Under the pieces are notes generated by a model, which worked only from the letters and a program-made list of their open reading frames with translations, did no database searches and had not been told where the DNA came from. The position numbers and the translations under genes are program-made. DNA of 59,055 nucleotides, counting the filler. It is 8 parts of 8 records of this genome, joined end to end, with 100 filler letters (N's around TTAATTAATTAA, not from the genome) between each part and the next. Parts side by side here need not be neighbours in the genome. Positions count along the whole stretch, not along the records: positions 49,813 to 59,055 come from SRR31147125_3678; 7 more parts are not named here. One strand, 5' to 3'. This document shows, one piece after another, positions 9,080 to 59,055 of this stretch; position 1 is the stretch's first letter, and each line of letters begins with the position of its first letter.

Positions 9080-9096
9080 ATGACTCTATAAAAATT

Positions 9097-12360: not shown

Positions 12361-12455
12361 TACCTTATTTTACTTGTAATTGCCATGGATGTGAGGACGA
12401 AACAGCCTATGAAGAGTCCTTGATGCAATGGAGAAAGTGCCGGGAAATTTAATAT

Positions 12456-13506: not shown

Positions 13507-13526
13507 CCTTTGAAGATCACATCAAT

Positions 13527-15607: not shown

Positions 15608-15914
15608 CTCATTGAATGTAACTATATGATCTGAAATAAAAACAAGATATACCAAAATTGTGGTGCTTTTTCTCAAAGTAATGAACCTTGAATAAAGAGA
15701 AGCACATAATGAGTATATTTGAAATACATAATGTGGTGAACTGTTAATAACGATTAAACGAGTGCCCTGAGTCGTTCAGGATACATTTTAAGCGGACTTT
15801 ATGTTTTGTAAAACAGGTTTCTCCTTAACGAATTTTGTATACATGGAGACTTGGATATTTCTTTTTATTTAGAAAATATTAATGACCCGCCCAAAATCTA
15901 ACCGTTCTTTTTTT

Positions 15915-16014
15915 NNNNNNNNNNNNNNNNNNNNNNNNNNNNNNNNNNNNNNNNNNNNTTAATTAATTAANNNNNNNNNNNNNNNNNNNNNNNNNNNNNN
16001 NNNNNNNNNNNNNN
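15915..16014. other. Artificial contig spacer
   Basis: N44-TTAATTAATTAA-N44. Confidence 0.99.
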
Positions 16015-16196
16015 AAATTCCGCGTAATAACGGATCTGCACCCTAAAAAATGAATAAGTTTTTGACGTTTGTGGTTATTCCCGAATCTTTTCGCAATAAT
16101 TATTGATTCTGTTTTCGGGCCAAAACAAAAAAGGAGTGTCCAAAAAGTAAAATTAATACATGAAACTTACAGTTTAAAAGTTTTGAGCTATCAAAG

Positions 16197-21987: not shown

Positions 21988-22058
21988 ACAGCTTTCTCCT
22001 CCTTTGTGCGGAAATGGCCTGCCGCGGTTCATATGCACTGCTCACACACCAATGGGAC

Positions 22059-22078
22059 GGGACGTTCTTAACATATTA
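22059..22078 (+). repeat. REP-like arm of the contig-4 repeat family
   Basis: GGGACGTTCTTAACATATTA, 16/20 identical to 24001-24020. Confidence 0.55.
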
Positions 22079-22558
22079 GCCTATCGGGTCTTGATCGTCA
22101 TTTCATACCCAATGATCCGGAACTGCCGCGATAAGTTAAAGCGCTAAGAAACCCATTATACATAATAGTTCTCGAAGATGGTGAAATTTTTAGCGGGAAT
22201 TATTTCGTTAAGCAACGCTGAAATCAGCGGAAGGCCGGTCGGCAGACTCTCGCGGGATCTTTTGGATGATTCGGGCATGCGCTTTGATCCTTGAATTTCA
22301 TGGAATTGGCGAGACGGGAACCAGGAGGTCGCCCAGAACTTGATAAACTTTGCGGGCTGTTGATTATCATCCCACTGCCATTGTTCGAGGATACTTAACA
22401 TCCCTCAATTGTTTAAAATGCACTTACTGGTATTGCGGCAATAACCCTGATGATTATGGTTGAATTTATAAACTACGAAATATTTGATTTCACACTCAAT
22501 ATCAGCCCTGTATTCAAGCCTTCTTGGATATTGCTGACACAACACAGAAGGCTACTCC

Positions 22559-23062
22559 ATGTCACCTGAAGGAATCTTTCAGATTGCATTGATCTTAGCT
22601 GCATTTCTATGCTCACTGGTAGCGGGTTTCTTGTTTGCTTTTGCCTTAGTGGTGATGCCGGGCATAAAAGGTCTAAAAGACCCGGAGTTCATCCGGGCTT
22701 TTCAGGTAATGGATCGCATTATACAAAATAATCAGCCTGTTTTTGTGTTGGTTTGGGTTGGTTCAGTCGTGGCCTTGGTGATCTCGGTTGCGCTTGGTAT
22801 CGGGCAGTTAGCCGGAGCCGGGCGTCTGATCATAATCTCGGCTGCACTGGCCTATCTTCTCGGCGTCCAATTGCCAACGGCCATTATCAACATACCGCTG
22901 AACAACAAACTACAAACGGTGGATGTCGAGGCTGCAAATGAAGCGGCCCAAGAAGCTGCTCGTCAGGACTTCGAACCGCATTGGAACCGATGGAACTCAA
23001 TCAGGACGGCCTTTGCGAGTATGGCATCCGCGTTATTAATAATTCTACTCTTCAGACTTTGA
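22559..23062 (+). CDS. DUF1772 / anthrone oxygenase family membrane protein
   Basis: LVAGFLFAFALVVMPG, FIRAFQVMDRII, NIPLNNKL, RQDFEPHWNRWNSIRT. Confidence 0.85.
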   Translation: MSPEGIFQIALILAAFLCSLVAGFLFAFALVVMPGIKGLKDPEFIRAFQVMDRIIQNNQPVFVLVWVGSVVALVISVALGIGQLAGAGRLIIISAALAYLLGVQLPTAIINIPLNNKLQTVDVEAANEAAQEAARQDFEPHWNRWNSIRTAFASMASALLIILLFRL

Positions 23063-23110
23063 AGGTCGCAGTCCCAATTTGATGATTGAGAATAAACAAC
23101 GGGGGAGACC

Positions 23111-23970
23111 ATGCCAAAAACAACAGGTAGAGACCCGCAGGGAGCGAATAATATATTGGTGATTGGCGGTACCGGTAAGACCGGCCGGCGTGTGGCGGAA
23201 CGGCTTGAGGAGATCGGTATGCAGGTAAGAATCGGCTCACGTTCCGTTGAGCCGCCATTCGATTGGGAAAATCCGGAAACCTGGGCAGCGGCTCTCGATG
23301 GAATGGACAAGGTTTACATCACATATCAGCCCGATTTGGCGGTCCCTGGTGCTCGGCAAGCCATTGACGGATTTACCAGCAAAGCGGTCAAAGGCGGAAT
23401 ACAAAAAATGGTCTTGCTTTCTGGGAGGGTGAAAAAGAAGCTGAGCTCTGCGAACAGGTGGTGATGAATGCCGGGGTTGACTGGACGATTGTTCGGGCCA
23501 GCTGGTTCAATCAGAATTTCAGTGAAAGCTTTTTCCTGGACCCAATATTAGAGGGCCAAGTTGCTCTACCAAGAGCAGAAGCGCTTGTGCCTTATGTTGA
23601 CGCGGATGACATTGCGGATGTTGTGATAGAATCCCTATTGGATGACAAGCATACCGGCCAAATTTTAGAATTGACAGGCCCGCGCCAATTGACATTCAAA
23701 CAGGTCATCGAAGAGATTTCAAAGGTCACTGGCAGGGAGATCCTGTTTAATTCGGTTACGATGGATGAGTACACAAAAATGCTCAGAGAATATCAAGTGC
23801 CGGAGGATTACATCTGGTTGATCAATTATCTTTTTACGGAAGTTTTGGTCGACAGGAATTCCAGCATCACCAATGACGTCCAAAAGGTACTTGGAAGGCC
23901 GGCAAAGGATTTTGCCGAGTATGCCAGAGAAACAGCTACAACCGGAATATGGAATCCTGACCCAAAGTGA
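23111..23970 (+). CDS. NmrA-like NAD(P)H-binding protein (frameshift near 23425)
   Basis: ILVIGGTGKTGRRVA, FDW, VLLSG/GEKEAELCEQ, WTIVRASWFNQNFSE, VDADDIA, ELTGP. Confidence 0.87.
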
Positions 23971-24000
23971 ATGAATCTCTGGACGTCATAGCGCGTCATA

Positions 24001-24093
24001 GGGACGTCCTAAACTAATTACCTTTGCATGCCATTGTTATGCCATTGTTTTGGAATTTTAAATGGAAAGTTAACAAGTTAAGGGCATCCGTGT
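24001..24093 (+). repeat. REPIN-like element, copy A
   Basis: Imperfect inverted arms 24001-24020 and 24071-24090; 24041-24093 matches 26629-26681 at 43/53 ungapped. Confidence 0.65.
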
Positions 24094-24205
24094 ATCCTCC
24101 CTACGGCGATCCACATTTTTAAAGACGTCACCTGTCGTAATTCAATCTCATCGTGCTTAACGTTAAACTTTTGTCCCAATCTGAACCACCGACGGGAGTG
24201 TTGCG

Positions 24206-25574
24206 ATGGAAGCACAGGAGGCTGAAAAAACCGAACGGGCCCGGAAATCGATTATCGATAAGGTCCTGGAGCGTACCATGGCGGTCAGCCGTGAAGAGGC
24301 GAAGGCTCTCGGTTGGGCATTCAGCTATTTCTTCGCGCTGTTGTGCAGCTATTACATCATTCGCCCCATGCGTGACGAAATGGGAATTGCCGGTGGCGTG
24401 GAGCATCTGCAGTGGTTATTCAGTGGAACGTTTCTGGCAATGCTGGCGGTCGTCCCCTTATTCGGCTGGATCACGCGGCGGTACACCACGCAGCGGTTTC
24501 TTCCCTTTGTCTATTATTTTTTTGTCGGCAACCTGCTGGTCTTCTATGCTCTTTTTAAATCCGACGTTACGCATGCTTATGTGGCCCGCGCCTTCTTTAT
24601 TTGGGTCAGCGTCTTCAATCTATTTGTTGTATCTGTCTTTTGGAGTTTCATGGCCGACACCTTTACTAATCAGCAGGCCAAGCGCCTGTTCGGCGTCATC
24701 GCCGCGGGCGGCACGGCCGGAGCCCTCAGTGGCCCCATGCTGACTGCAGCCCTGGTGGTTCACATAGGGCCAGCCAACCTGCTGCCACTGGCGGCCGCCG
24801 TACTGGCCTGGGCGGTGTTGTGCATCCATCGGCTGATCGCCTGGAAGCGATCCACATCTGCTCCCCCTCCGACCTGATGGTGAAAATTCGTCAGCAGCAT
24901 CCCGGTCCAAACCGGAACCCCGTTCGGATAAGGTTATGGGCGGCAGTATTTTTGCCGGTGTCCAACTGGTCTTTCGATCTTCCTATTTGGTCGGTATCTG
25001 CCTGCTGATCCTTTTGTACTCATCTTTGGCGACGTTCTTGTACTTTCACCAGGCACAGATCGTCAAAGAGAGTTTCGACGACGCAGCTACCCGTACCGCC
25101 GTCTTTGCGGTCATGGATTTCAGCGTCAACGCCATCACCTTGGCCGTCCAAATTTTCATAACCGGCAGATTGATCCGAAAGATCGGGGTGGGCTGGACGC
25201 TGGCGCTGATCCCGGTGCTGTTGGTTATCGGATTTCTTGCCTTGGGTACTGCACCCGTTTTGGGGGTGATCGTGGTGGTGCAGATCCTGCGCCGGGCCGG
25301 CAATTATGCGATAATGCGTCCGGCCCGTGAAATGCTCTATGTCGTTCTCGGCAGAGAAGAAAAGTACAAAGCCAAAAATTTTATCGACACCGTTGTCTAC
25401 CGGGGAGGGGACGCAGTAAGCGCATGGTTTTATGCAGCCCTGCAAGGCTTGGGGCTGTCGGCTTCCCATATCGCCCTGATGGCGGCTCCCCTTGCCGCAA
25501 TTTGGTCCTGGATATCATTCAGGCTGGGAAAACGCCAGGAACGGATGGCGGAGACAACTTCATCCGAAAAGTAA
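24206..25574 (+). CDS. NTP/NDP exchange (TLC/Npt-like, COG3202-type) MFS transporter (frameshift near 24865)
   Basis: YYIIRPMRDEMG, SVFWSFMAD, QAKRLFG, RPAREMLY...EEKYKAKNFIDTVVYRGGD. Confidence 0.82.
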
Positions 25575-25599
25575 CTATCGGCCAAGGAAGGAGGCCATT

Positions 25600-26534
25600 A
25601 TGAATGATATACACTTATCCATGACGCGACGCTCGTTTCTGGAAACGACCGCCGCCTTGATGTCGACGCTGCTGCTGACACCTGCAATGGCATGGGCACA
25701 AACGCAACGCATGGTGAAACGAACGATTCCGTCCAGTGGAGAAAGTCTGTCGGTTATGGGGATGGGGACTTCACGAACTTTTGATGTCCATGGCGATACT
25801 GCCACTATGACGCAATTGGCACAGGTGCTGGAGGCCTTTTTCGCCAACGGCGGCGAGTTGATCGATTCATCGCCCATGTACGGCGCCGCCGAAAGCGTGG
25901 TGGGCGAACTGCTCGAATCGATTTCTATACCCGATCGATTGGTTACCGCCACCAAGGTGTGGACCGACGGTCGGCAGTCCGGCATTTCCCAGATGGAGCG
26001 GTCGAGGCAACGGTTGGGGGTCGATGTCATCGATTTAATGCAAATCCACAATCTGCGCGATTGGAAGACCCACCTGCCGGTTCTCAGGGAGTGGAAACGG
26101 CAGGGAAAAATCCGTTACATCGGCATTACCACATCTCACGGACGCTTTCGAGCGGATCTGAAGGAGATACTACGAAGCGAGACGTTCGATTTCGTTCAGT
26201 TCAGCTACAACATCGAAGACCGCAGTGCCGAAAGAGAGTTGCTGCCGGTAGCCGCTCAGCACGGGATCGCCACCCTGATCAACCGTCCGTTTCAACGCGG
26301 TAGCCTTTTTCCCGGACCAAAGGGCTCCGTCTTCCGGAGTGGAGCGGGGAATTCGACTGCCACAGCTGGGCCCAGTTCTTCCTCAAGTTCATTATTTCGC
26401 ATCCGGATGTCACTTGCGTCATACCGGCGACTTCGAAAGTCAGGCATATGCAGGATAATATGGCGGCAGGTTTCGGTCGACTGCCGGATGCCGAAATGCG
26501 GAAACGCATGATCGCCTATTTCGAATCGCTATAA
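25600..26534 (+). CDS. Aldo/keto reductase with twin-arginine signal peptide (frameshift near 26308)
   Basis: TRRSFLET...AMAWA signal; GMGT, IDSSPMYG, ATKVW, DLMQIHN, GKIRYIGIT; shifted tail WAQFFLKF...VIPATSK; GGAGG RBS. Confidence 0.88.
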
Positions 26535-26577
26535 AAGCTAAACTACCAGCGCCTGCATGGATCAGTCCGGGGACCAT

Positions 26578-26681
26578 GGGCATACCCTTAACTTATTAAC
26601 TTCACAGGATAATGATTATCATTCCATAGCCATTGTGTTAGAATATTTAATGGAAAGTTATCAGGGTAAGGGAGTCCCTGT
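26578..26681 (+). repeat. REPIN-like element, copy B
   Basis: Left arm GGGCATACCCTTAACTTATTA, inverted right arm ...TAAGGGAGTCCC; homologous to copy A. Confidence 0.65.
26608..26626. promoter_or_regulatory. Fur-box-like sequence
   Basis: GATAATGATTATCATTCCA, 15/19 to consensus GATAATGATAATCATTATC. Confidence 0.35.
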
Positions 26682-26965
26682 TCTCTCGTCCCGGCAGGCC
26701 CCACCGGCCCCATGGGGGTAGAATTGATCGGTGATATAATAAATGTTCGGTGAGTTGAACTTTAAAGAAACAACCACAAAAACAGAGGCGCCATATGATT
26801 CGAACACGTTGGCGAAACGGCATTGGGCAAGGATTCTGTTTGTTCGGGATAGGGGCACGTTTGGTACTTGGAATGCCCATTAAATTATATTAGACGGTAA
26901 TGAAATATTAATGGAAACTGAAGAACAATATAATTGAAGAGGTGTCCCTCTCGCTCCAAAATAAA

Positions 26966-27724
26966 ATGATTATCAGAAGCGAAAATCCATCAGACATTGA
27001 AGCGATCGCCGAAGTCACTAAGGTGGCTTTTGAGGATCATCCGTTCAGTCAACAGACAGAGCATTTTATCATTCGTGATCTCCGTGCCGCCGGCGCACTG
27101 ACCATATCGTTGGTGAGTGAAGTTGATGGGCGGGTTGTTGGGCACATTGCCTTTTCGCCCTTAACGATTTCCGATGGAACGACAAACTGGTATGGCCTTG
27201 GTCCGGTGTCTGTGCTGCCGGATTATCAGGGACGCCGAATAGGTACGGCGCTGGTCAATAATGGGCTGTCGTTGCTGAAGTCTATGGGTAGCAAAGGCTG
27301 TGCCCTTGTGGGGTTGCCTACATACTACAATCGGTTTGGCTTTACGAACCATCCTCAGCTAATTCATGAGGGAATACCACAAGAAGTCTTTGTGGCAAAG
27401 TCCCTTGCTGGAAGAGTGCCATGTGGGACGGCTGAGTTTCATCAGGCATTTAAGCAGCTGTCGGTAATTGAAAAAGATGCCATTACCGATGTCATTATCG
27501 ACTATGACATTGCCGGTATAAGGGTTGATCTTGCGAACCCGGCGATTGAAAGTCAAATGGAAAAAGAAATTTTGACTGAAATGCCGGATGGCAGGTTCAT
27601 GATGCGACCTTCAGCACTGGCAGAGTATGACTCATATTTTGCTCAGGTTGGTCAACTCAGGGCCGCAGAGATGAGTCGTGTGCACAAGAATCCGATATTG
27701 GCGGCGATTAAGTATGGAAAATAA
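26966..27724 (+). CDS. GNAT N-acetyltransferase (YhbS-like) with ~90-aa C-terminal extension
   Basis: LRAAGALTISLV, VVGHIAFSP, WYGLGPVSVLPDYQGRRIG, YYNRFGF, EFHQAF, then extra sequence; alternative GTG start at 26942. Confidence 0.85.
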   Translation: MIIRSENPSDIEAIAEVTKVAFEDHPFSQQTEHFIIRDLRAAGALTISLVSEVDGRVVGHIAFSPLTISDGTTNWYGLGPVSVLPDYQGRRIGTALVNNGLSLLKSMGSKGCALVGLPTYYNRFGFTNHPQLIHEGIPQEVFVAKSLAGRVPCGTAEFHQAFKQLSVIEKDAITDVIIDYDIAGIRVDLANPAIESQMEKEILTEMPDGRFMMRPSALAEYDSYFAQVGQLRAAEMSRVHKNPILAAIKYGK

Positions 27725-27969
27725 TGATGATGATCCAGGGCGATGTGGATTTTGGGGAGGTCTTTTCTACGGTAATCTTTTTTTATGTTCTCTTTGAAAT
27801 CATTACTCATTTGCTATATTAAAAAAAGTATAAATGTTTGCTATCGTCGAATTATAAATAATTTCAATAAATAACGATTCTACTATCAGTAAAAACAATT
27901 AATGCTTTCCCCGAGTATACCGATATCGAAAGTATCCTTTTCCGAACGGAAGGGCGATTCAGCATACTG

Positions 27970-28069
27970 NNNNNNNNNNNNNNNNNNNNNNNNNNNNNNN
28001 NNNNNNNNNNNNNTTAATTAATTAANNNNNNNNNNNNNNNNNNNNNNNNNNNNNNNNNNNNNNNNNNNN
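27970..28069. other. Artificial contig spacer
   Basis: N44-TTAATTAATTAA-N44. Confidence 0.99.
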
Positions 28070-39850: not shown

Positions 39851-40441
39851 TTATCTTCTGTTTAGTTCTACCTTTTCATACTCAAGGTATTTATATAAAG
39901 TTGTTTTGCTACCAATCCCGGTCATAGTACATATTTCATCTGCTGTGTAGTCGCCCGTTAAGTAATATTTTTTTGCTAAAGCTGCTTTTTTCTTTGCACT
40001 TTTTGATAAGCCCGGTTTTCTTCCACCGGTTTTTCCTTTTCTTTTTGCTGCCTCTAATCCTGCCTTTGTTCTTTGTACAATAATTTCCCTTTCATATTCA
40101 GCAAGTGCTGCAAAGATTCCAAACTGCATTCTTCCCATGGCAGAACTTGTATCAATCCCATCATTGATACTTTTGAATCCAATTTCAGCTTTATTTAAAT
40201 CATCTATTATTGTCACCAGGTCTTTAAGCGATCTCCCGAGCCTGTCGAGCTTCCAAATCACAAGCACATCCCCGGCCCTCATATATTCTAAAGCCTTATC
40301 AAGCTCCTTTCTTTGTGAAAGCGCTGAGACCTTTTCAGAATAAATTTTTACACAACCTGCCTTTTTAAGCGCATCAATCTGCAAATCCAGGTTCTGTTCC
40401 TTAGTACTTACCCTTGCATACCCAATTAACTGTCCTGCCAT
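39851..40441 (-). CDS. Serine recombinase (resolvase/invertase family)
   Basis: GYARVSTKEQ (catalytic Ser), VIWKLDRLGRS, AEYERE, RTKAGL...GGRK, C-terminal HTH. Confidence 0.95.
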   Translation of the reverse strand: MAGQLIGYARVSTKEQNLDLQIDALKKAGCVKIYSEKVSALSQRKELDKALEYMRAGDVLVIWKLDRLGRSLKDLVTIIDDLNKAEIGFKSINDGIDTSSAMGRMQFGIFAALAEYEREIIVQRTKAGLEAAKRKGKTGGRKPGLSKSAKKKAALAKKYYLTGDYTADEICTMTGIGSKTTLYKYLEYEKVELNRR

Positions 40442-49701: not shown

Positions 49702-49712
49702 ATAATACTCCC

Positions 49713-49812
49713 NNNNNNNNNNNNNNNNNNNNNNNNNNNNNNNNNNNNNNNNNNNNTTAATTAATTAANNNNNNNNNNNNNNNNNNNNNNNNNNNNNNNN
49801 NNNNNNNNNNNN
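49713..49812. other. Artificial contig spacer
   Basis: N44-TTAATTAATTAA-N44. Confidence 0.99.
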
Positions 49813-52331
49813 ACCTGTATTAATGTAGTTGCAGGAGTTGCGTTGATGCTTGCAATAATTCCACCTGATTTTTTAACATCAACAATAACGTTACATGTAT
49901 TTTTAATAAGACCATCTTCAGTTGACACCGTAATAGTAGTCTCTCCTTTTGAAATCCCACTAATAATACCTGTTGAACTTACAACCGCAATAGATGGATT
50001 ATCTGACGTCCAACTAAGTTTTTGGTTAGTTGCGTTCGATGGAACCACTTCTGAGTTTAGTTGAAATGTTTCACCTACATTTAAATTAACAGATTCTGTA
50101 TTTAAATTAATCTCCTCGACATTAATTATTTGAGATGCACCTGCTTCTACAACAACTGCACATGAAGAAGTATATCCACCATCTCTTGTAGTAACGGTAA
50201 TTGTAGAACTTCCTGGAGATATTGCTTTTATCAATCCGTCAGTATCTACCTCAACAACTGATGGGTTGCTTGATTGCCAAGATACTGATTTATTGGTTGA
50301 GTTTGTTGGAGTTATACCATATGATAATTTAATTTCTTCTCCAACCTCTAAGGTTTCTGAAGTCCGGTTTAATGAAATTCCATTCACTTTTATTTCATCA
50401 CCAATCAATCCACTAACAAAATAAACATTACTTCTAAAACTAGGTATAGACACCTCATTTCCAACTGAATTACCATCCTTATCCACATACGAATAATTTG
50501 GATTTAGTTCATAGGTTTTTGCAGCATTTGAAGTATTATATAAATATACGATCTTATCAGAAGCTCTTTCGGATGAACTATATCTAATTGGAGTAGATTT
50601 TGAGTTATCTTCCCAATTATTATCATATGGATTATTACTTTTCCAGCTATCAAGGCTATAATATGAACTACCTCCAATTTTAAATAATTTATTTGGATCT
50701 CCCCACGGTGCGATCCAATAATTATGGTCCGACTCAACATTATTATAATTTGAACTAAATCCCCACCAGGCATTTTGAAATAATTCATTACCAACAATTA
50801 CATTATTTGTAAATGTTAAATTATTTTGTGTTGGAAAACCAAATAAAAGTCCATATGCGTCTGGCCATTCACTTTTCATTAAGCCAATATCAAAAAAGTT
50901 ATTATTTCTAAATGTTCCTCCTTGTGCCTCGTTAATTCTGCAACCAAAATCAACGTTAATACATGTATTATTTTCCCATGTAATACCATTACACGCATTA
51001 TCTTGATATAATCCGATACCTGGGTGCCATTCACTACCATCACTAGGATTACCACTATTCATTACAATATTATTGCTAACAACTGAACCCGAATTGGTAG
51101 TTTTATATGCGTATATAGCCCCTCCATCATTTAATACCTGACAAAAACCATCAATTACATTCGAGTCTATAACCACTGAGTTTTTGTGCCAATTAATAAC
51201 ATTATAACCAATATTTGTAAATGTATTTTTTCTAATTGTAGCAGGCGCATATTCAATTGCTAATGCCCGATATCCATACGATCCATCATCTAATCCAGCA
51301 ATGCTACCAATATTCGTAAACTTATTATTATAAATATATGCGGTGTATCCTCCTGTCCACATAGCATCACTGGTCATATTAGAAATATCACAGTTTTGTA
51401 TAACCATATTCCCACTTCCAGATTCTTTTAAAAAATAATTCGAATAACGTGCTGTTACATTATTGATTGTAAGATTACTCATACTACCAATCTGAAAAAT
51501 AGTATATTCAAAATCTCTAAGTTCGATATCATTTACAGTACAAACAGATGCTGTGATATTAAACCCTGTACGATGCACCGGCATTTCTACTTGCTGCTGG
51601 TTCAAATTACCAGTGTAATAAACTTTAATTGTATGATTTGAAGAATTATAGTTCCATTCTCCATCAAATGACAAAGTATTATCATGATTTTGAATAAAAT
51701 AACCATTATTTGCAGTGGATTGAGTTCCAAATGAATATGTTGCAGACTCAGATAAATTAAAGGTTCCACCGTTTTGTGAGCGTATCGATAACCTATCGTA
51801 AATATAATGCATTGTCCTTACAACTACCTCTCCTCCATCCCAAGTACCTGATGAAGATATTTGATTGTCCACAATAACATTATTGCCAGAACTAGATTCA
51901 AAGTATAAAAACCCTTGATCTGGATATCTTCCTAAACGATTGAAGACTCCGTTTATAAATATTCCTCCAAGGTAATTCTCATCCGATGGCAATTCTGAGT
52001 TCGATAAACTCCATATATTACCATTTTGAGCAAACCCGGATAATAATTTACTTCCTTTAATTATAGGCTTACTACCCTCAGAATATGCCCCAAATGTTAA
52101 ACCTGAAACAGAAACGGTTAAACTACCGCGAAATACATCGCTCCTTTTAAACAGAATAACATCACCAGAACGTAAACTCCCCATTGAAGATTGAACTTTT
52201 TGTATAGTTGCCCAAGGAGAATTTTCTGATGTTCCTGAATTATTATCATTCCCTTCGTTTGAAACGTAATACGTTGTACCATAGGCTACGCCGAACCATA
52301 TTGCACATATAAATATAATTATCCTTTTCAT
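49813..52331 (-). CDS. Secreted right-handed beta-helix protein with two Ig-like (Big_2) domains, 3'-truncated
   Basis: Signal peptide; TYYVSNEGNDNNSGTS..PWATI; Asn-rich beta-helix with DGGAIY and GLYQDN; two repeats of type V.GISL...P.N.TN...W.S.NPS...V...G.I.....G..TITV.T.DG. Confidence 0.8.
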
Positions 52332-52348
52332 AATCAACGTAATTAATT

Positions 52349-52400
52349 TTTGACTAAACGCTAAAAAAATTTGACTAAATAACGATTCTCTTTGACCAAA
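52349..52400. promoter_or_regulatory. Three 10-bp direct repeats at exact 21-bp period (LytTR-type binding array)
   Basis: TTTGACTAAA 52349, TTTGACTAAA 52370, TTTGACCAAA 52391; 18-69 nt upstream of ATG 52331. Confidence 0.65.
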
Positions 52401-52922
52401 ATTACGTCAATCACATGTATTTTGTTTCTCTTTTTATACACTTTTTATTAAAAATCTTAACACATGATTGTTAACTTCCAGAATTGACGAACCTTTCATG
52501 GTTAAGAAAAAAATTAATAGATTCAATAAATATTTATTTATAACACAAAAAATTGAAAACTTTATTATGGGCTACTTTAACGCCTCTCACCTCTAACCTT
52601 CTAAAACACTGAAAAACAAAAATATAAAAGAAAGTATAAAATAACACAAAATTTGATAAAAATTTTTTATTAAGAATTAACCTTGATATTTATTGTTCTA
52701 TCAAAGTTTTACAAGAAACTATAACAAATGAGTTATTTATTATTTGACTTTTTAACAAAAAACGGTTAACATATAAATTACAAAATCAGTTTTAGAGTCA
52801 TTTTATACAATATTCAACTATACAGAATCAACATAATTTTACACTCAAATAAAATCTAAAACCATATAACGTTGAGATAGTTGATATTATTTTAGCAACA
52901 ACAATAATAGTTATTAATATAA

Positions 52923-53882
52923 TTATTCTAAGATATCATGATTTTTTTCTCCCCATGCAATCAATTTTTTCCTTGAAATAATGAAAACATAGTTATAAGG
53001 ATTATATACACCTTCATCATATAACCTTTTTCTTTCTTTGCTTAAAAACAGCGCATTTTTGATTGTCTTCTCGTTTGTATTATGTTTAAAGGTTTCACCT
53101 CCAATTTCTTCTATTATATTAAGAAAAAAAGCCAACTCTGGAGATATTTTTTTAATAACAGGATCAAAAAACCAACTGGTTCCATTAACCCCTTTAATTT
53201 TTTTATTCTTTTTTAACAATTGAGATACACTATAAAACATCCTTCGTACACCAGCTTCATTAAAAAATTTCATAGCATTAAAGTCAACCTGATTGTTATG
53301 AAACTTATAAACTGGAGAAATTCCTTTTAGCTGAAAAACAACGGTAAAAACACCTTTTATAAGTTGTCTTACATTATGCGAAAATAAAAATCTGATTGAG
53401 ATACGATCCGTATCTAGTAGTAGAGGGTTAATTAATATTGTATTAAGATTACAAATAGACTGAATTTTCAAAAATTTATCATCTGTATAAACAAAAAAAC
53501 TGTCAGAAAAATGATTGTTCATTAGACTGTTAGTTGTTGCAGAATAAAATTTTAAAATTCCTTCAATGATGTATTGTGTTAAAAGGTCATTATTGAGTCT
53601 ATTTAAAGAATTAAGCATCATTTTAGCCAAAAGTACTTTTTGGTGAATTACATACTCTTGCCCTTGAAGAACATTACTTATTTTGTCAAAATAACCTTTG
53701 GCTTCCTTTGAAATATAATTGTAACTACATTCAATTGGATAATCTTTAAGAATATTAATCACCTCTGATAAATTCTCATCAATCAAATGAAAATCAGCAC
53801 TTTTGTTTTTAGAATCTAGAATTAATCTCTCAATCTCTTTTTTTACTTCTGTTGAAGTTGGGATATTTTGGTTTGAATACAT
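52923..53882 (-). CDS. Hypothetical protein, possible GNAT-like N-acyltransferase
   Basis: 319-aa ORF; GTSWFFDPVIKKISP resembles the SWxxDP motif of GNAT_C-type acyltransferases; divergent from the ACP operon. Confidence 0.55.
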   Translation of the reverse strand: MYSNQNIPTSTEVKKEIERLILDSKNKSADFHLIDENLSEVINILKDYPIECSYNYISKEAKGYFDKISNVLQGQEYVIHQKVLLAKMMLNSLNRLNNDLLTQYIIEGILKFYSATTNSLMNNHFSDSFFVYTDDKFLKIQSICNLNTILINPLLLDTDRISIRFLFSHNVRQLIKGVFTVVFQLKGISPVYKFHNNQVDFNAMKFFNEAGVRRMFYSVSQLLKKNKKIKGVNGTSWFFDPVIKKISPELAFFLNIIEEIGGETFKHNTNEKTIKNALFLSKERKRLYDEGVYNPYNYVFIISRKKLIAWGEKNHDILE

Positions 53883-54092
53883 AATTTAAAAAAATATATT
53901 TCCTCTCAAAAATAACCTTAATTTTAGGTTAAAAAAATGATATAACATGAAAATTAGTTTTAAAACAAAGCTTATATTTTAACGTACATTGAAAAAATTA
54001 GTCCCTTAATCAAATTAATAGATACATTGGGACATATTAAGCAGTATAAGGCAAATAAATAAATAATTTTGAAATAAAATAATTTAATAAAC

Positions 54093-54347
54093 ATGATGCA
54101 AATGGAGCAAATAAAACAAAAAGTAAAAGATTACATTCTTGAAGTATCATTCGCTGAAAAAGAAAGTATTAATGAAGAAACCCTCATATTTCAGGAGGGC
54201 TATTTTGATTCAATGGGGTTTGTTATGCTACTTAGCTTTATTGAAGAATCTTTCGGTGTTAAACCAAGCGATGAGGATCTCGTTGAAGAAAATTTCGAGT
54301 CAATTATCGCAATCTCTGATTTTATCACAAAAAAACAAGCCGCCTAA
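54093..54347 (+). CDS. Acyl carrier protein
   Basis: Small and acidic; GYFDSMG phosphopantetheine Ser motif; FIEESFGV...ENFES. Confidence 0.9.
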   Translation: MMQMEQIKQKVKDYILEVSFAEKESINEETLIFQEGYFDSMGFVMLLSFIEESFGVKPSDEDLVEENFESIIAISDFITKKQAA

Positions 54348-54350
54348 AAA

Positions 54351-56317
54351 ATGTGCGGGATTGCAGGCATAATAGATTATTCAGGCAAGGAACATGTTGA
54401 CCTTGTTACAAGAATGCTAACCAGAATTAATCATCGGGGTCCTGATGAAAGCGGTATTTATTCAAGTAATAAAGCAACAATTGGTAACGTAAGACTAAGT
54501 ATTATTGATATTGCTTCAGGTCAACAACCTTTATCTGATCCTCATGAGAATTATTGGATTGTCTTTAATGGGGAATTATTTAATTACATCGAACTACGTG
54601 ACGAATTAGAAAAAAAGGATATTCTTTTAGAACAAAAAGCGATACCGAAGTAATTGTTCAATTATATGCATGTTACGGTAAAGATGCTCTCTCTAAAATG
54701 AACGGGCAATTTGCTTTTGCCATATGGGACAAACAAAAAGAAGAACTTTTTATTGCGCGCGACAGGGTTGGAATACGGCCATTATTTTATCATTATAAAG
54801 ATGGTATTTTCACATTTGGCTCTGAAATTAAAACAATCCTAGAAAACCCTATGGTTGATCGAAGATTTAACTATCAAGGATTACACCAGGTTTTCACATT
54901 TTGGACAAGTATTACACCAAATACAGTTTTCGAAAATATATTTGAATTGTCTCCGGGTCATTATATGACAATAAATAAAGACGGTATCAAAACATCGAAA
55001 TACTGGGAGTTAGATTATACTGAAACTGATAAATTTTCTAGAATAGAGGAGGCAGCCGAAGAGTTCAGTTCACTATTTTCAGATGCGATTAGGATTAGAT
55101 TGCGGGCAGATGTTGAAGTTGCCGCATATCTGAGTGGTGGTCTTGATTCAAGTGCAACAACAGCTTATATAAAAAAGATTGAGCCAAGTATTCTGCACAC
55201 GTTCTCAATTGGTTTTAGAGAGGGTGAATTTGATGAAACAAAGTATCAGAATGAAGCCTCAAAATACCTGGATACAGATCACAACTCGATCTATTGCAAC
55301 TCTGAGGAAATTGCAGAAAATTTCCCCAAAGTAACATGGCATGCAGAGACTCCATTAATTAGAACTGCTCCAACACCAATGTATTTATTATCTGGATTGG
55401 TACGTTCTAATAATATTAAAGTTGTTATTACGGGAGAAGGAGCAGATGAAATGCTTGGAGGCTACAATATTTTTAAGGAATCAGAAATCCGACGGTTTTG
55501 GGCAAAATACCCAAATTCAAAATACCGTCCATTGCTTCTTAAAAAATTGTACCCATATCTTCCTCAGATGCAAAAGGCATCTCCAACTATGTTGAAACTA
55601 TTTTTTGGGTATAAACTTGAGGATCAACAAAATCCATTTTATTCTCATTTATTAAGGTGGAACAATGCTTCGCATATTAAAAAGCATTTTAGTCAATCTG
55701 TAAAGAACATTAATAACAGCTATGATCCTTTTGACGAAATTACCAAGCTTTTACCTGGTAATTTTGAAAATTGGAGTTCGCTTTCGAAGGCCCAATATCT
55801 TGAAACAAGCATCTTCTTATCTGGATATTTGTTATCCTCGCAAGGTGACAGAATGGGTATGGGAAATTCTATAGAAGGGCGTTACCCTTTCCTCGATCAC
55901 AGGTTAATAGAGTTCTGTAACAGCCTTCCACCAAAATTTAAACTCAATGGATTAAATGAAAAACATCTTTTAAAAAAGGTGGTTAAAGGTAAAATTCCAG
56001 AAAGTATTGTTGGAAGATCAAAACAAGCTTATAGAGCACCAATAGCAAGTACATTTTTAAGTTCAAATGCTCCTAGTTATGTTAAAGAAGCACTTGACAA
56101 TGCTAATATTGATAAAGTTGGTGTTTTCGACTCTAAATCTGTAAGCTCACTTTTAGAAAAAGTTAGGAAAAGTGATAGACCTTCAGAAATAGAAAATATG
56201 AGTATAACAGCTATAATTTCTACTCATCTAATTTACAATCAATTCATAAAAAATGATTATCTTTCTTTAAACAAAGACGATCTTCTTAAGCCTAGGATTA
56301 TTAATGAGAGGCTATAA
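54351..56317 (+). CDS. asnB: Asparagine synthetase B-like glutamine amidotransferase (frameshift at A7 run 54610-54616)
   Basis: MCGIAG (Ntn Cys), HRGPD, RLSIID, FNGELFNY, SDTEV, GQFAFAIWD, ARDRVG, LSGGLDSS, GEGADE, EGRYPFLD. Confidence 0.93.
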
Positions 56318-56333
56318 TAAAAATAATAAAACA

Positions 56334-57332
56334 ATGAATAAATCAGAAAAGAAACCATTTTCAAAAGATATCATCCTTCTTGAGGATATTGAAGGAGTTG
56401 TTAACACAATAATAGAAAAAATGCGTGCCGATGTTTTTAAAACGCTGCATAGAAGAGGTGGTGTAATTGGAATCAGTGGTGGTATTGATTCGTCTGTTTG
56501 TATGGCATTAGCAGCAAAGGCATTTGGTCCGGAAAGATGTTTTGGTATTATGATGCCTGAACAAGATTCGAGTCCTGAGAGTGAAATGTTGGCAAGGGAA
56601 CTTGCTTCAAAATTCGGAGTTGAGGCAATTGTCGAAGATATGACTGCGTCATTAGCTGGTTTCAAATGTTATGAAAGAAGAGATGAAGCAGTAAAAAATG
56701 TCTTTCCTGAGTATGATCCGCAAAAACACAAAATGAAAATTGGTGTAAAACAAAGCGGTTTATATTCGAAACTTCCTCCTGTTTTTTCTGTAACAATTAT
56801 CGATGAAGATGGTAATGAAAAAGAAGAACGATTGCCAGCAAACGATTATTTGCAGATAGTTGCTTCTTCAAACTTTAAGCAACGTTCTAGAATGTCTATG
56901 GTTTATTATCATGCAGAACGTCTTCACTATGCTGTAGTTGGAACACCAAACAAACATGAAAAAGAACAAGGTTTCTTTGTGAAATATGGTGACGGCGGTG
57001 CTGATATAATGCCAATTGGTAATTTATATAAAACCCAGGTATATCAAATAGCTGAATACTTAGGTGTACCTCAGGGAATTATTGATAGAACACCTACAAC
57101 TGATACATATACTGCTGAGCAAACACAAGAAGAATTCTTTTATCAGTTGCCACATGATTTAATGGATAGATACTGGTATGGTTATGAGAATGGATATTCT
57201 CCGGCAGAGGTTGCAGAAGTGATGGGCAGTACCGAAGAAGATGTAAAGGCAATGTTTGTTAATTTTGAACGCAAATATAAAACTACAGAATATCTTAGAA
57301 TGCCTCCAATTAGGGAGTATTATAATGGATAA
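56334..57332 (+). CDS. nadE: NH3-dependent NAD+ synthetase-like protein (divergent paralog subfamily)
   Basis: SGGIDS PP-loop, NFKQRSRM, GTPNKHE, GFFVKYGDG, LYKTQVY, TPTTDT; long insertion after the PP-loop. Confidence 0.8.
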   Translation: MNKSEKKPFSKDIILLEDIEGVVNTIIEKMRADVFKTLHRRGGVIGISGGIDSSVCMALAAKAFGPERCFGIMMPEQDSSPESEMLARELASKFGVEAIVEDMTASLAGFKCYERRDEAVKNVFPEYDPQKHKMKIGVKQSGLYSKLPPVFSVTIIDEDGNEKEERLPANDYLQIVASSNFKQRSRMSMVYYHAERLHYAVVGTPNKHEKEQGFFVKYGDGGADIMPIGNLYKTQVYQIAEYLGVPQGIIDRTPTTDTYTAEQTQEEFFYQLPHDLMDRYWYGYENGYSPAEVAEVMGSTEEDVKAMFVNFERKYKTTEYLRMPPIREYYNG

Positions 57333-57459
57333 AAGCATTAAATTTTGAGTTATCCATTGTTTTGGGTAACTCAAAATATATTCTACCAAATTATTACATA
57401 AAACATCAAATCAATAAATTTATCTAACCCAAATATCTACATAAAAACAAATCAAAAGA

Positions 57460-58908
57460 ATGAATTGTGTCGATTACCTATTTGAAAATACTTTTGAGAA
57501 TGATAATATCTTTATTGTTGGAAAAGAAGAGATCTCATTTAAAAAATTAAATGATAATGCTAATAGTTTGGCTAATCACATAAACAATACAATAGGTAAA
57601 GGTGAAAATATAATCCTTCTATCGGTCAACAATTTATTCTTTATTACTGCTTATTTGGGCATAATTAAATCTGGAAATACGTGTGTCCCACTCGATCCTA
57701 AAATAGAAAACAGCAATTTGGAATACATTATTGGGCAAACTGCTCCTAAAATGATTATTCTTACACCTGATGTTGCTAAAAGGTTAAAGATTGATACGGA
57801 AATTAGCTTATTACCAGAAAATTTACAATCAATTTTCATAGATAATTCATCAACATATAAAGCTGATCCAAATTTTGATGAAGAGACAAATGCAGAAATA
57901 ATATTCACATCTGGCTCAACAGGAGTTCCTAAAGGAGTAATGTTAACTCATAAAAATATTATTGCAAATACACAATCCATAGTTGAATATTTAGGAATCA
58001 CAGACAAGGACCGAATGATGGTCGTAATGCCATTCTTTTATTGTTATGGATTATCATTACTTCACACTCATCTGCGTGTTGGAGGTTCAATTGTTCTTAA
58101 TAATTCCTTTATCTTTCTTGGAAAAGTAATTTCCGATCTAAAGAATCTTGAATGCACTGGATTTGCCGGTGTTCCAAGTCATTTTCAAATTCTACTAAGA
58201 AAATCAGATACTTTTAAAAATTCTGATTTCCCAAAATTAAGATATGTAACTCAAGCTGGCGGAAAACTTTCAACTGTATTTATCGACGAATTCATTGAAA
58301 ACTTTCCAGATACCGAGTTTTTTGTCATGTACGGACAGACAGAAGCAACAGCCAGGTTATCATACCTTCCTCCTAACGCATATAAAGCAAAAAAAGGTTC
58401 GCTTGGAAAAGGAATACCTAATGTAACATTATCAGTAGTAAACAATGAAGGTAAACCCGTTAAACCTGGCGAAGCTGGTGAAATAATTGCTTCTGGGGAT
58501 AATATTATGAAAGGTTATTTAAATCAACCTGAAGAAACAGACAAAGTCATAAAAGACGGATGGTTATACACGGGCGATCTAGCAACAATCGATGAAGATG
58601 GATATATTTTCCATGCCGGTAGGATGAAAGAAATAATGAAAATTTCAGGCAAACGTGTTAGTCCTAAAGAAATCGAAGATGTAGTACTTAGAATGAATCA
58701 AGTTGTTGATTGCACAATTGAAGCAATTTCTGATGATATACAAGGCGAAGCAATAAAAGCTACAATAATTGTCAAAAATGTTAACGCCCATACTTTATCG
58801 GATGCGGAAGTAAAAGAGCATTGTTCGAAAAGTTTAGCATTATATAAAATTCCGTCTGTTATTGAATTCAAAGACAGAATGGAATTAAGTAGTTCCGGAA
58901 AAAGTTAA
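57460..58908 (+). CDS. AMP-dependent acyl-CoA/acyl-ACP ligase (ANL adenylating enzyme)
   Basis: FTSGSTGVPKG, YGQTE, IMKGY, YTGDL, GRMKE, SPKEIE, SSSGK. The last few codons may be shifted in an A run (possible true end ~58922). Confidence 0.92.
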   Translation: MNCVDYLFENTFENDNIFIVGKEEISFKKLNDNANSLANHINNTIGKGENIILLSVNNLFFITAYLGIIKSGNTCVPLDPKIENSNLEYIIGQTAPKMIILTPDVAKRLKIDTEISLLPENLQSIFIDNSSTYKADPNFDEETNAEIIFTSGSTGVPKGVMLTHKNIIANTQSIVEYLGITDKDRMMVVMPFFYCYGLSLLHTHLRVGGSIVLNNSFIFLGKVISDLKNLECTGFAGVPSHFQILLRKSDTFKNSDFPKLRYVTQAGGKLSTVFIDEFIENFPDTEFFVMYGQTEATARLSYLPPNAYKAKKGSLGKGIPNVTLSVVNNEGKPVKPGEAGEIIASGDNIMKGYLNQPEETDKVIKDGWLYTGDLATIDEDGYIFHAGRMKEIMKISGKRVSPKEIEDVVLRMNQVVDCTIEAISDDIQGEAIKATIIVKNVNAHTLSDAEVKEHCSKSLALYKIPSVIEFKDRMELSSSGKS

Positions 58909-59055
58909 AGCTAAATTATAATCATTTAGACCAGTTTTAATAGTTTTCCAAATTTATCTTCCATAATCATTTTATTTTTTTACGTGCATTAATATATTTT
59001 TGCACAAAAAACTATAATGATTAAATTCTTACTAGTAAATCTATTATTTTCATCA

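Follow-up and report, generated by a model that had tools for sequence, protein, structure and literature searches.

A conserved ACP, AsnB, NadE-like and ANL ligase gene cassette and its possible role in acyl donor synthesis

In the window (the whole stretch of DNA analysed here, 59,055 nt with filler included), four co-directional genes coding for an ACP, an AsnB-type glutamine amidotransferase, a NadE-like paralog and an ANL (adenylate-forming) ligase make up a conserved and widespread unit. In our estimate there is about an even chance that these genes form a donor-building module that is combined with interchangeable transferases, its product being an amide-bearing acyl group for a surface glycan. 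The observed part of this reading comprises the gene content and conservation of the cassette, together with the paralogy and the folds of its proteins.

Layout and conservation of the cassette

On the plus strand, the gene of the dedicated carrier protein (ACP, 54093-54347; 84 aa, with Ser40 of a DSMG motif as the attachment site) is followed by asnB (54351-56317), by the gene of the NadE-like paralog (56304-57332; 342 aa; an ATP pyrophosphatase of the PP-loop type that carries a conserved insertion) and by that of the ANL ligase (57460-58908 as recorded). A divergent ORF (ORFdiv, 52923-53882, minus strand; 319 aa) is separated from the ACP gene by an AT-rich region of 210 nt (53883-54092, 18% GC). 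This region holds two copies of TAnnTTTG, at 53907-53914 (minus strand) and 54064-54071 (plus strand), in both cases some 22-25 nt ahead of a start codon; over the whole window TAnnTTTG shows no enrichment, with 64 matches where 75 would be expected. The five ORFs described in a first-pass annotation were all found at these coordinates. The amidotransferase gene had been said to start 3 nt after the ACP gene, which agrees with an ATG at 54351, but in this record it is not one ORF and its frameshift had been overlooked.

Eighty related loci were compared, 48 of them with at least 7.5 kb of flanking DNA on each side. The earlier proposal that the four genes form a cassette is supported by these well-flanked loci, where the NadE-like gene is accompanied by an ACP in 47 cases, by AsnB in 48, by an ANL ligase in 47 and by all three in 46, meaning that the complete set is kept in 46 of 48. 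In 48 of 52 loci asnB is immediately preceded by the ACP gene, and in 56 of 63 the NadE-like and ligase genes are neighbours; the order ACP-AsnB-NadE-like-ANL is found in 25 of 47. The same four genes are present on plasmids of S. meliloti and Shinella. The S. meliloti operon, which had been named as a similar case, does exist, being arranged on pSymB as asnB, smb20651 (ACP), smb20650 (ligase) and nadE, with overlapping ligase and nadE genes. It comprises the same four families as the window in a different order, and the rhizobial NadE-like proteins are 43-46% identical to that of the window over 90-98% of their length. In the passages of PMC7232532 that deal with these proteins, SMb20650 is described, with reference to Ramos-Vega 2009, as acylating holo-SMb20651 in E. 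coli, and the paper's own results indicate that it does not replace FadD, nor is it a long-chain acyl-CoA synthetase. The rhizobial operons have neither polysaccharide nor acyltransferase genes in their flanks, and this location outside EPS loci counts against the proposed donor synthesis.

In this record asnB cannot be read as one uninterrupted frame. Its first frame ends at a stop codon (54651-54653) after 100 aa, and the remainder (54611-56317) is in another frame, the shift lying inside an A7 run at 54610-54616; a gene broken as recorded also counts against an active donor pathway. Four aligned relatives have one base more than the window at the shift point, and the N- and C-terminal parts of AsnB share one frame in all 69 related loci that could be assessed (11 of the 80 could not). 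Moreover, a Logan contig of run X1 (22,105 nt, depth 52), which spans 52300-59055, has an extra A behind 54609 and an AA behind 58898. With these two A's the ligase stop codon would move to 58919-58921 and the C-terminus would become ...SSSGKKVKAKL, like that of the closest related locus, instead of the recorded ...SSSGKS. The contig also differs from the window by 4 intergenic insertions and 14 substitutions, and as run X1 is possibly the source sample, it may not represent independent DNA. Because it carries the missing bases, the one-base shortfall in asnB and the two-A shortfall in the ligase gene are most likely record errors. A biological split, meaning a pseudogene or a programmed -1 frameshift, appears very improbable. 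The sequence would allow for slippage, with the 0-frame reading gaA AAA AAG and the -1 frame going on with the canonical ...KKGYSFRTKSDTEV, and the A AAA AAG heptamer is known from E. coli dnaX as its slippery site. Against such a split stand the additional A of the contig, the intact frame of the 69 assessable relatives, the interruption of the A-run by other bases in three of the four aligned relatives and the fact that the same record is short of bases in other A-runs or AT-rich stretches.

The four encoded proteins

The ACP scores 23.1 bits against PF00550 (cut-off 20.8), which places it in this family, and among 44 family members the residues D39, S40 and G42 are invariant, as are N67, F68 and S70. 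In 6 of the 80 loci the cassette has a gene for an Sfp-type PPTase as a neighbour. Judged from its sequence, AsnB belongs to the glutamine-hydrolysing asparagine synthase family: the protein starts with MCGIAG, its N-terminal part matches GATase_6/7, and its C-terminal part reaches 295 bits with Asn_synthase (PF00733) and 405.5 bits with TIGR01536 (cut-off 267.1). The two parts obtained 91.3 and 322.5 bits with TIGR03108, whose cut-off is 816.9, and the protein was not assigned to the XrtA/PEP-CTERM amidotransferases.

The ligase is a member of the ANL superfamily (AMP-binding, 239.3 bits; AMP-binding_C, 40.9 bits), with the oxalate-CoA ligase 5IE0 as its nearest solved single-domain match (190.5 bits) and about 110 bits for each of two A domains of LgrA. 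The Asp of the FDxS motif in adenylation domains binds the alpha-amino group of the substrate; in the cassette ligase a Cys aligns with the Asp of the LgrA FSFDGS motif. With this Cys and 234.4 bits against 317.4 for TIGR01733, an amino-acid adenylation domain was rejected, as were DltA (NF003417, 201.7 bits; cut-off 476) and the exosortase A-associated acyl-CoA ligase (TIGR03098, 289.3 bits against 592.35).

The motifs NFKQRSRM, GTPNKHE and TPTTDT, by which the NadE-like protein had been singled out, are all present in the product of 56304-57332 (plus strand). Its predicted model (pLDDT 86.6) has the NadE fold, residues S58, G59, G60, D62 and S63 of the PP-loop are invariant in the family, and with 425.4 bits it lies above the cut-off (313) of NCBIfam NF002048 (PRK00876, NAD(+) synthase). 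The insertion noticed at first sight was located at about residues 105-185 (some 70-80 residues), a segment that ranks with the best conserved ones of the family, with Y123, R126, A129 and K145 invariant. Neither the solved NadE structures nor the housekeeping NadE of one relative has an equivalent segment, and the insertion is absent from each of the nearest solved structures, 2E18, 3FIU and 1XNG. These short-type, NH3-dependent enzymes (3FIU being the NMN synthetase of Francisella) share fold, PP-loop and core motifs with the NadE-like protein, which alone has the insertion with invariant Tyr, Arg and Lys. It reads PTTDT and QTQEEFF where 2E18 has PSAGL and QTDEDEL, and its gene is linked to ACP, AsnB and ANL genes in 46 of the 48 well-flanked loci.

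That the protein is a paralog, as initially supposed, is corroborated by the genomes of five relatives, each of which has, besides the cassette copy, a separate frame of about 550 aa matching NAD_synthase with 238-250 bits. These glutamine-type enzymes (CN_hydrolase plus NAD_synthase in the two that were scanned) are 21-27% identical to the NadE-like protein of the window. A genuine second NAD synthetase that merely happens to be located in the operon would agree with the NF002048 score, the NadE fold and the retained PP-loop and core motifs, but it is quite improbable given its occurrence together with the ACP, AsnB and ANL genes in 46 of 48 loci, the glutamine-type NadE elsewhere in 5 of 5 genomes, the conserved insertion with its invariant residues and a segment past the P-T-T-D-T motif that is unlike that of solved NadE. 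Apart from this alternative, the retained core motifs and the NF002048 assignment count against the donor synthesis proposed here. More tentatively, and with rather less than even confidence, we suggest that the paralog, rather than being an NAD synthetase, belongs to the carrier pathway, where it would activate a group of the ACP-tethered acyl chain by adenylation and attach ammonia, with its conserved basic insertion serving as the carrier docking site. Its target might be a second carboxyl, or else the amide made by AsnB, which would become an amidine or a nitrile; other PP-loop enzymes form amidines or nitriles.

Locus context and candidate transferases

A link to surface polysaccharides had been put forward from the outset, and it receives partial support: capsule or EPS genes occur in about half of the 80 related loci, whereas none adjoins the cassette in the left flank of the window, which holds sugar-uptake genes and a Big_2 surface protein. 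Poly_export is found in 20 of the 80 loci, MBOAT in 19, Bac_transf (cluster c6) in 18 and a Wzc-like protein in 17, and at least one among these, a second Bac_transf cluster and UDP-GlcNAc 2-epimerase is present in 44. In 61 loci there is no MBOAT within the DNA covered, which, like the gene content of the left flank, counts against the donor reading. No MBOAT is visible in the window either, which ends 147 nt past the ligase stop codon, so that the DNA downstream of the cassette is not visible. In the closest locus (L001; NadE-like proteins 82% identical) a flippase gene lies divergently upstream, and the ligase gene is followed by cluster c8, MBOAT, cluster c14 and a DAO-family oxidoreductase. 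In locus L053, two FdtA genes precede the cassette, and a hexapeptide acyltransferase and a DegT aminotransferase follow it.

AsnB-family enzymes of O-antigen loci amidate uronic acid, and the amide synthetases of the cassette might likewise not act on a carrier, with AsnB amidating a uronic acid of the glycan and the ACP and ligase providing an ordinary acyl group. Such an arrangement would suit the EPS nature of the relatives' loci and the 322.5 bits of the AsnB C-terminal part with TIGR03108, a score below cut-off. We consider it improbable, as asnB follows directly on the ACP gene in 48 of 52 loci, at a distance of 3 nt in the window, and the four genes travel together also where glycan genes are not near.

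The protein encoded by ORFdiv carries the SWFFDP motif that had first drawn attention to it (S236-W-F-F-D-P241) and has no match in Pfam or NCBIfam. Its family (864 representatives at E<=1e-3) has invariant W237, R284 and P295 and nearly invariant H195, D240 and P241. The suspected relation to GNAT_C could be traced at the level of fold but not by a Pfam match of the window protein itself; in the family, 3 of 83 members match GNAT_C weakly (best E 0.0031), and 27 of 30 matches in the ESM Atlas belong to clusters carrying GNAT_C/NAT_N. The predicted model (pLDDT 96.1) aligns by VIA-align with the Orf11* entries 4MFJ, 4MFK, 4MFZ, 4Q36 and 6IIX (Z 10.7-11.9; 237-248 residues, model residues 11-308, rmsd 4.4-4.9 A), the next row having a Z of 7.0, and the top Foldseek match is 4MFZ (E 1.9e-3, TM 0.44). 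ORFdiv is predicted to adopt a two-domain NAT_N/GNAT_C-like acyltransferase fold and is the candidate transferase in this genome. With Orf11*, the N-acyltransferase of teicoplanin biosynthesis (Pfam NAT_N and GNAT_C), it shares a helical N-terminal and a GNAT-like C-terminal domain at 5-9% sequence identity. The PDB titles of Orf11* refer to complexes with acyl-CoA and teicoplanin, whereas the genes next to members of the ORFdiv family point to polysaccharide loci in which the donor is an acyl-ACP and the acceptor a sugar. Among 46 metagenome loci of this family, an ACP matching the cassette ACP profile occurs in 6, a strong ANL match in 2, an acyl-CoA dehydrogenase in 11 and a polysaccharide deacetylase in 12, and in locus L128 a family member, an ACP and an ANL ligase are encoded in a single direction. 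ORFdiv is not a conserved partner of the cassette. It is found in none of the 80 cassette loci, a sample of 301 genomes from the phylum gave no match to its family, and its GC content (27%) is unlike that of the cassette genes (32-36%), and for these reasons its adjacency to the cassette may be accidental.

In locus L039, a 1,874-aa type I PKS (KS-AT-DH-KR-ACP) stands directly after the ligase gene. This continuation of the cassette into a PKS suggests a metabolite rather than a glycan at L039, and the cassette might more generally prime or feed the synthesis of a small molecule, a polyketide or a lipid built on an amide starter, with ORFdiv as an unrelated neighbour. Such a role would also accord with the stand-alone rhizobial operons, with the lack of conservation of ORFdiv and with the part presumed for AsnB-type amidotransferases such as OxyD in malonamate starter synthesis (PMC6164072). 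Two observations make it unlikely: polysaccharide export, initiation, MBOAT or epimerase genes are present in 44 of the 80 loci, and a PKS was found in only one of the 97 flanking ORFs that were scanned out of 131 listed.

Proposed pathway and related systems

In the donor pathway that we favour, it is inferred which acid is used, in what order the steps follow, that the amidations take place on the carrier and what the acceptor is. The ANL ligase would adenylate a carboxylic acid, probably short and not an alpha-amino acid, and transfer it as a thioester to the dedicated ACP. AsnB would then use glutamine-derived ammonia and ATP to amidate a free carboxyl group of the tethered acid, and the NadE paralog, with free ammonia and ATP, would add a second nitrogen transfer to this pathway, one that likewise depends on adenylation, without making NAD. 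The finished acyl group would pass to its acceptor by whichever transferase the locus carries: in this genome probably ORFdiv, as an Orf11*-like N-acyltransferase acting on the amino group of a sugar or glycan, and in the relatives either an MBOAT that works with periplasmic partners or an N-acyltransferase of the left-handed-helix type, within capsule or EPS loci. If the more tentative reading of the NadE paralog as an enzyme of the ACP-tethered chain is true, thousands of genes automatically named 'NAD(+) synthase' would fall into a new branch of the NadE family with a function of its own, and this branch would decorate bacterial surface glycans with a nitrogen-rich acyl group of a kind not seen so far.

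The Dlt system consists of the ligase DltA, the carrier DltC, the MBOAT protein DltB and DltD. Its small carrier is loaded by an adenylating enzyme, as proposed for the cassette, and 19 of the 80 related loci have an MBOAT accompanied by partner proteins that are membrane-anchored or secreted. Nonetheless, the cassette proteins score far below the cut-offs of the Dlt models (DltA, 201.7 against 476; DltC, 26.9 against 68), the ligase has a Cys at the FDxS-type Asp of LgrA, and amide synthetases belong to the cassette and not to Dlt.

In glutarimide polyketides, pairs of an ACP and an AsnB-like amidotransferase make malonamyl starters. The ACP-AsnB gene adjacency of such systems, among them that of OxyD, recurs in the cassette, which differs from them in having a stand-alone ANL ligase as presumed loader, a NadE paralog and a context made up mostly of polysaccharide loci, with a PKS beside only one locus. 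In the relevant part of PMC6164072, OxyD (AsnB-type) is presumed to be the source of malonamate, the starter of oxytetracycline, and the AsnB-family enzyme is thought to amidate a dicarboxylate bound to a carrier or to CoA.

The presence of two amide-forming enzymes for one small acid counts against the donor pathway. PrmC methylates a glutamine amide nitrogen, and a PrmC/HemK-like methyltransferase gene, which occurs in 13 of the 80 loci, was counted in favour of an amide product.

A conserved four-gene unit and the breaks in its record

Near the right end of the window, an ACP gene (54093-54347, plus strand, 84 aa, Pfam PP-binding) is followed after 3 nt by an AsnB-type gene on the same strand (start 54351; Pfam GATase_6/7 and Asn_synthase), the C-terminal part of which alone scores 405.5 bits against TIGR01536 (NCBIfam). 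Further along the plus strand lie a NadE-like gene (56304-57332), whose protein is matched by Pfam NAD_synthase in two stretches and reaches 425.4 bits against NF002048 (NCBIfam, cut-off 313), and an ANL ligase gene (57460-58908 as recorded) with AMP-binding and AMP-binding_C domains (Pfam). A divergent ORF (52923-53882, minus strand), here called ORFdiv, has neither a Pfam nor an NCBIfam match. The window's left flank encodes a sugar transporter of the ABC type, a regulator of the GntR family, an FAA-hydrolase and a Big_2 protein.

The grouping of the four cassette genes is recurrent. When species genomes were scanned with the NadE-like protein, at least 80 related loci came up, the listed ones originating mostly from Bacteroidales, Marinilabiliales, Chitinophagaceae and Ignavibacteria, with two from Chlorobiota and one each from genomes labelled Caldilineaceae, Acidobacteria and Zixiibacteriota; counts out of 80 refer to these listed loci. 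In the 48 listed loci that have 7.5 kb or more to either side, AsnB was always present (48/48), ACP and ligase were each found in 47, and 46 had all three, the exceptions being one locus without an ACP match (L052) and one without a ligase match (L073). ACP stands directly upstream of AsnB in 48 of 52 listed loci and the NadE-like gene is a neighbour of the ligase gene in 56 of 63. The arrangement seen in the window, ACP-AsnB-NadE-like-ligase, occurs in 25 of 47, and split modules among the listed loci break into ACP-AsnB and NadE-like-ligase pairs. It is very likely that the four genes work together. Culturable carriers include S. meliloti, Carboxylicivirga caseinilyticus, Ancylomarina euxinus and Marinilabilia salmonicolor.

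The five ORFs described in the first-pass annotation, and every motif that it quoted, are present in the window, but asnB is split over two frames. Frame 1 ends after 100 aa and the other 568 codons are read in another frame, the switch sitting in an A7 run (54610-54616). The site reads gaA AAA AAG, a -1 slippery heptamer in the 0 frame that resembles the slippery site of dnaX. A programmed frameshift and a pseudogene were both considered and are unlikely: the two parts share one frame in all 69 assessable related loci (11 of the 80 listed loci were not assessable), four aligned relatives carry one base more at the break, and a 22,105-nt Logan contig from run X1, spanning window positions 52300-59055, has an additional A behind 54609, so that the frameshift is most likely a homopolymer error. 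Since run X1 may be the source sample, this contig counts as an independent assembly but not as independent DNA. It also has AA behind 58898, and differs from the window by further insertions at 53887, 57376, 57424 and 57453 and by 14 substitutions. The two missing A's alter the last codons of the ligase (58893-58908); the corrected frame ends at 58919-58921 and yields the tail SSSGKKVKAKL, identical to that of L001, the closest of the listed loci, and the ligases of relatives finish in GKK(V/I/T)K-type tails. Because the relatives are in frame and the contig supplies the extra bases, both breaks are probably homopolymer errors or minor strain variation rather than biology.

In the divergent intergenic region, two outward-facing TAnnTTTG matches, 53907-53914 (minus) and 54064-54071 (plus), lie about 22-25 nt before the start codons; the motif is not enriched across the whole window. 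Scans for sigma-70 promoters (39 found, 37.3 expected) and for terminators (2 found, 2.9 expected) stayed at chance level. A look for RNA data sets carrying the cassette listed none.

The NadE paralog, the ligase and the rhizobial operons

Among solved proteins, the NadE-like protein is closest to NadE enzymes of the short, NH3-dependent type (2E18, 103.5 bits; 3FIU; 1XNG), to which it aligns in two blocks with residues ~105-185 falling between them. In the AlphaFold model (pLDDT 86.6) this segment, which the solved short enzymes do not have, forms two helices and a three-stranded sheet. Foldseek returned NadE structures only, with TM scores of ~0.6 when normalised to the query against ~0.8 when normalised to the targets, meaning that the extra part is absent from solved NadE structures. 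Across 54 family members the PP-loop is invariant, as are Y123, R126, A129 and K145 inside the insertion and the run P264-T-x-D-T-Y...E-Q-T-Q-E-E-F-F. The family is large: at least 7,987 of 8,000 scored candidates, which are cluster representatives at 90% identity, fall at E ≤ 1e-30, and among the matches listed every member named by its source is called NAD+ synthase.

The relatives carry the NadE-like gene as an additional copy, since each of the five genomes examined contains another NAD_synthase match that scores far higher (238-250 bits) and lies in a ~550-aa frame. These second ORFs encode 548-553 aa with 21-27% identity to the window protein, and the two that were scanned both combine CN_hydrolase with NAD_synthase. 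The NadE-like protein is likely not the housekeeping enzyme.

For the ligase, the best solved match counted per domain is oxalate-CoA ligase 5IE0 (190.5 bits), ahead of feruloyl/fatty-acyl-CoA synthetases (181.5 bits) and malonyl-CoA synthetase (145.5 bits); the 221.8 bits that place LgrA at the top of the list are the sum of two A domains of ~110 bits each. A Cys of the ligase (PFFYCYG) aligns with the Asp of the LgrA motif FSFDGS. In amino-acid adenylation domains this Asp binds the alpha-amino group, and with Cys in its place the predicted substrate would be a carboxylic acid lacking an alpha-amine and may be a short dicarboxylate. For AsnB, the hydroxyamidotransferase 7YLZ is the nearest solved relative.

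A similar operon in S. meliloti, named in the first-pass annotation, does exist, on a plasmid. In PLSDB, matches that take in 80% or more of the query occur in 110 plasmid records, and all matches of that search taken together are mainly rhizobial. The S. meliloti and Shinella operons hold the same four genes as the window in a different order, asnB-ACP-ligase-nadE; the last two genes overlap, and polysaccharide genes were not seen in the surroundings of these operons. Upstream of asnB, Shinella has a hypothetical gene that lacks a Pfam match and is unrelated to the ORFdiv family (hhalign probability 0.2). According to passages of PMC7232532, SMb20650 and the ACP gene SMb20651 are transcribed together, and SMb20650 acylates holo-SMb20651 in E. 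coli (Ramos-Vega 2009, as cited there) and cannot replace FadD. In the open-access full texts that were searched, no paper was found joining ACP, asparagine synthase and NAD synthetase genes to (exo)polysaccharide, nor one joining tetronate, perosamine and acyl carrier protein.

Family and fold of the divergent ORF

A word-index search brought up just 2 relatives of ORFdiv, and exhaustive searching with HMMER yielded 864 representatives at E ≤ 1e-3, of which 479 lie at E ≤ 1e-10. An alignment of 83 sequences shows W237, R284 and P295 to be invariant, and F137, H195, D240, P241, P248, G291, Y293 and R304 nearly so. The SWFFDP motif pointed out in the first-pass annotation contains W237, D240 and P241 and is therefore a signature of the family. 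The window protein itself deviates at two nearly invariant positions, having L150 for Pro and N152 for Gly.

The suggestion of a GNAT_C-type acyltransferase proved right at the level of the fold. The ORFdiv model (pLDDT 96.1) comprises an N-terminal domain made of helices and a C-terminal alpha/beta domain, a two-domain fold in common with the teicoplanin N-acyltransferase Orf11* (4MFJ, 4MFK, 4MFZ, 4Q36 and 6IIX). The top five acyltransferase matches in Foldseek are all Orf11*, although weak (best E 1.9e-3, TM 0.44), and VIA-align gives Z 10.7-11.9 over 237-248 residues of both domains, against 7.0 for the next rows and ~6, in the C-terminal domain only, for ordinary GNATs. Moreover, 27 of 30 Atlas feature matches are clusters carrying GNAT_C/NAT_N, and a weak GNAT_C match appears in 3 of the 83 family members.

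The first-pass interpretation thus holds in part: the conserved unit, the additional NadE copy in relatives, the S. meliloti operon and the GNAT_C-like fold stand, but ORFdiv was found by tblastn in none of the 80 listed cassette loci. Its family HMM detected nothing among the 940 ORFs of these loci, even at E ≤ 10, nor was there a match at E ≤ 1e-10 in 301 sampled genomes of the phylum. ORFdiv has a GC content of 27%, lower than the 32-36% of the cassette genes.

A metagenome scan with a degenerate motif of the family gave 118 stretches, from which 80 loci with flanks of up to 2 kb were taken, 46 of them containing a family member. Within those flanks an ACP matching the profile of cassette ACPs occurs in 6 of the 46, five of which show the NF-x-(S/T)-I motif, and a strong ANL ligase in 2, one locus (L128) having family member, ACP and ANL on one strand. 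Acyl-CoA dehydrogenase was found in 11 of the 46, polysaccharide deacetylase in 12, glycosyltransferase in 7 and flippase in 2; because L143/L159 and L146/L149 each look like one region sampled twice, these are counts of loci, not of lineages. With these data, the chance that ORFdiv draws its acyl group from the cassette ACP is put slightly below even. A coherent scheme would have a deacetylase free the sugar amine, which an Orf11*-like N-acyltransferase would then acylate from acyl-ACP.

In seven of the metagenome loci (L109, L122, L128, L152, L154, L166 and L168) a family member occurs with an ACP and an acyl-CoA or 3-hydroxyacyl-CoA dehydrogenase, sometimes with an ANL. These modules look like a separate, apparently undescribed N-acylation cassette.

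Neighbourhoods, proposed chemistry and the rest of the window

The ORFs of the 80 listed loci were clustered and representatives scanned against Pfam. Poly_export occurs in 20 of the 80, MBOAT in 19, Bac_transf (cluster c6) in 18 and a Wzc-like GNVR/AAA_31 protein in 17, followed by hexapeptide acyltransferase (10), SnoaL (7) and Sfp-type PPTase (6); 44 loci carry one or more of the following: Poly_export, MBOAT, a member of either Bac_transf cluster, Wzc-like protein, UDP-GlcNAc 2-epimerase. Nucleotide-sugar enzymes, flippases and glycosyltransferases are also among the 97 of 131 cassette-flanking ORFs that were scanned. A surface glycan as the acceptor in most lineages is somewhat favoured.

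Individual loci point to different partners. In L001 a Polysacc_synt_3 flippase lies divergently upstream of the cassette, and downstream of the ligase come a cluster c8 protein, MBOAT, a cluster c14 protein and a DAO-family oxidoreductase; similar genes may lie beyond the window's end. In L053 (4808-12414) the cassette is preceded by two FdtA genes and followed by genes for a hexapeptide acyltransferase and for a DegT aminotransferase. These are genes of a 3-amino-3,6-dideoxyhexose pathway, suggesting that a nucleotide amino sugar is N-acylated. L056 has a hexapeptide acyltransferase gene (10562-11344) after the cassette. In L039, from the genome labelled Caldilineaceae, a 1,874-aa type I PKS (KS-AT-DH-KR-ACP, 10532-16156) comes directly after the cassette, which may prime a polyketide there.

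A PrmC/HemK-like methyltransferase was found in 13 of the 80 listed loci (for example L047, 11619-12518). PrmC targets an amide nitrogen, and such a target would fit the recurrence of this gene. It goes, often together with a SnoaL-like gene, with a second, divergent ligase type (28-31% identity), mainly in genomes labelled Chitinophagaceae or Prolixibacteraceae and their relatives. Three clusters without a Pfam family (c8, c11 and c14; ~270-320 aa; L001 10557-13850) stand beside MBOAT in cassette loci, one of them with a weak GDSL match, and may be periplasmic partners of MBOAT.

The cassette would belong with carrier-protein-dependent acyl donor modules, AsnB-type amidation being already known from polyketide starters. 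Its best reading, held at even confidence, is a donor-building module with interchangeable transferases. Whether the amidations would take place on the carrier is judged evenly balanced. Two amide-forming enzymes could be accounted for by two carboxyls or by amidation before loading; alternatively, the second could convert the amide into an amidine or nitrile, chemistry for which there are precedents among PP-loop enzymes. If the donor-building reading is true, the labels "NAD+ synthase", "asparagine synthase" and "acyl-CoA ligase" mislead metabolic reconstructions, and a widespread capsule/EPS decoration in Bacteroidota, Ignavibacteriota and rhizobia is chemically uncharacterised. Since the partners vary (MBOAT, hexapeptide-type, the Orf11*-like protein in the window, PKS in one locus), the module would be well suited to exploring how carrier-protein donors are divided among their users.

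Elsewhere in the window, an N run at ~49702-49760, giving X in both flanking ORFs, marks a gap in the scaffold that separates the FAA-hydrolase gene from that of the 858-aa Big_2 protein, so that the C-terminus of the Big_2 protein is missing from the record. The stretch 22001-28000 has a GC content of 46-54%, against 26-41% in the rest of the window, and short, fragment-like ORFs (MFS, TLC, aldo/keto reductase and NmrA pieces); it may be foreign DNA or a chimeric scaffold, an rRNA operon being ruled out because Rfam has no match anywhere in the window. A serine recombinase (39851-40441; Resolvase domain, 156 bits) lies amid sugar-utilisation genes. Finally, 5984-15063 carries OTCace (aspartate/ornithine carbamoyltransferase) and FemAB/Acetyltransf_6-like genes, then a GT4, two GT9 (heptosyltransferase-type) and two GT2, and looks like an LPS-core or glycan cluster, 38 kb from the cassette.
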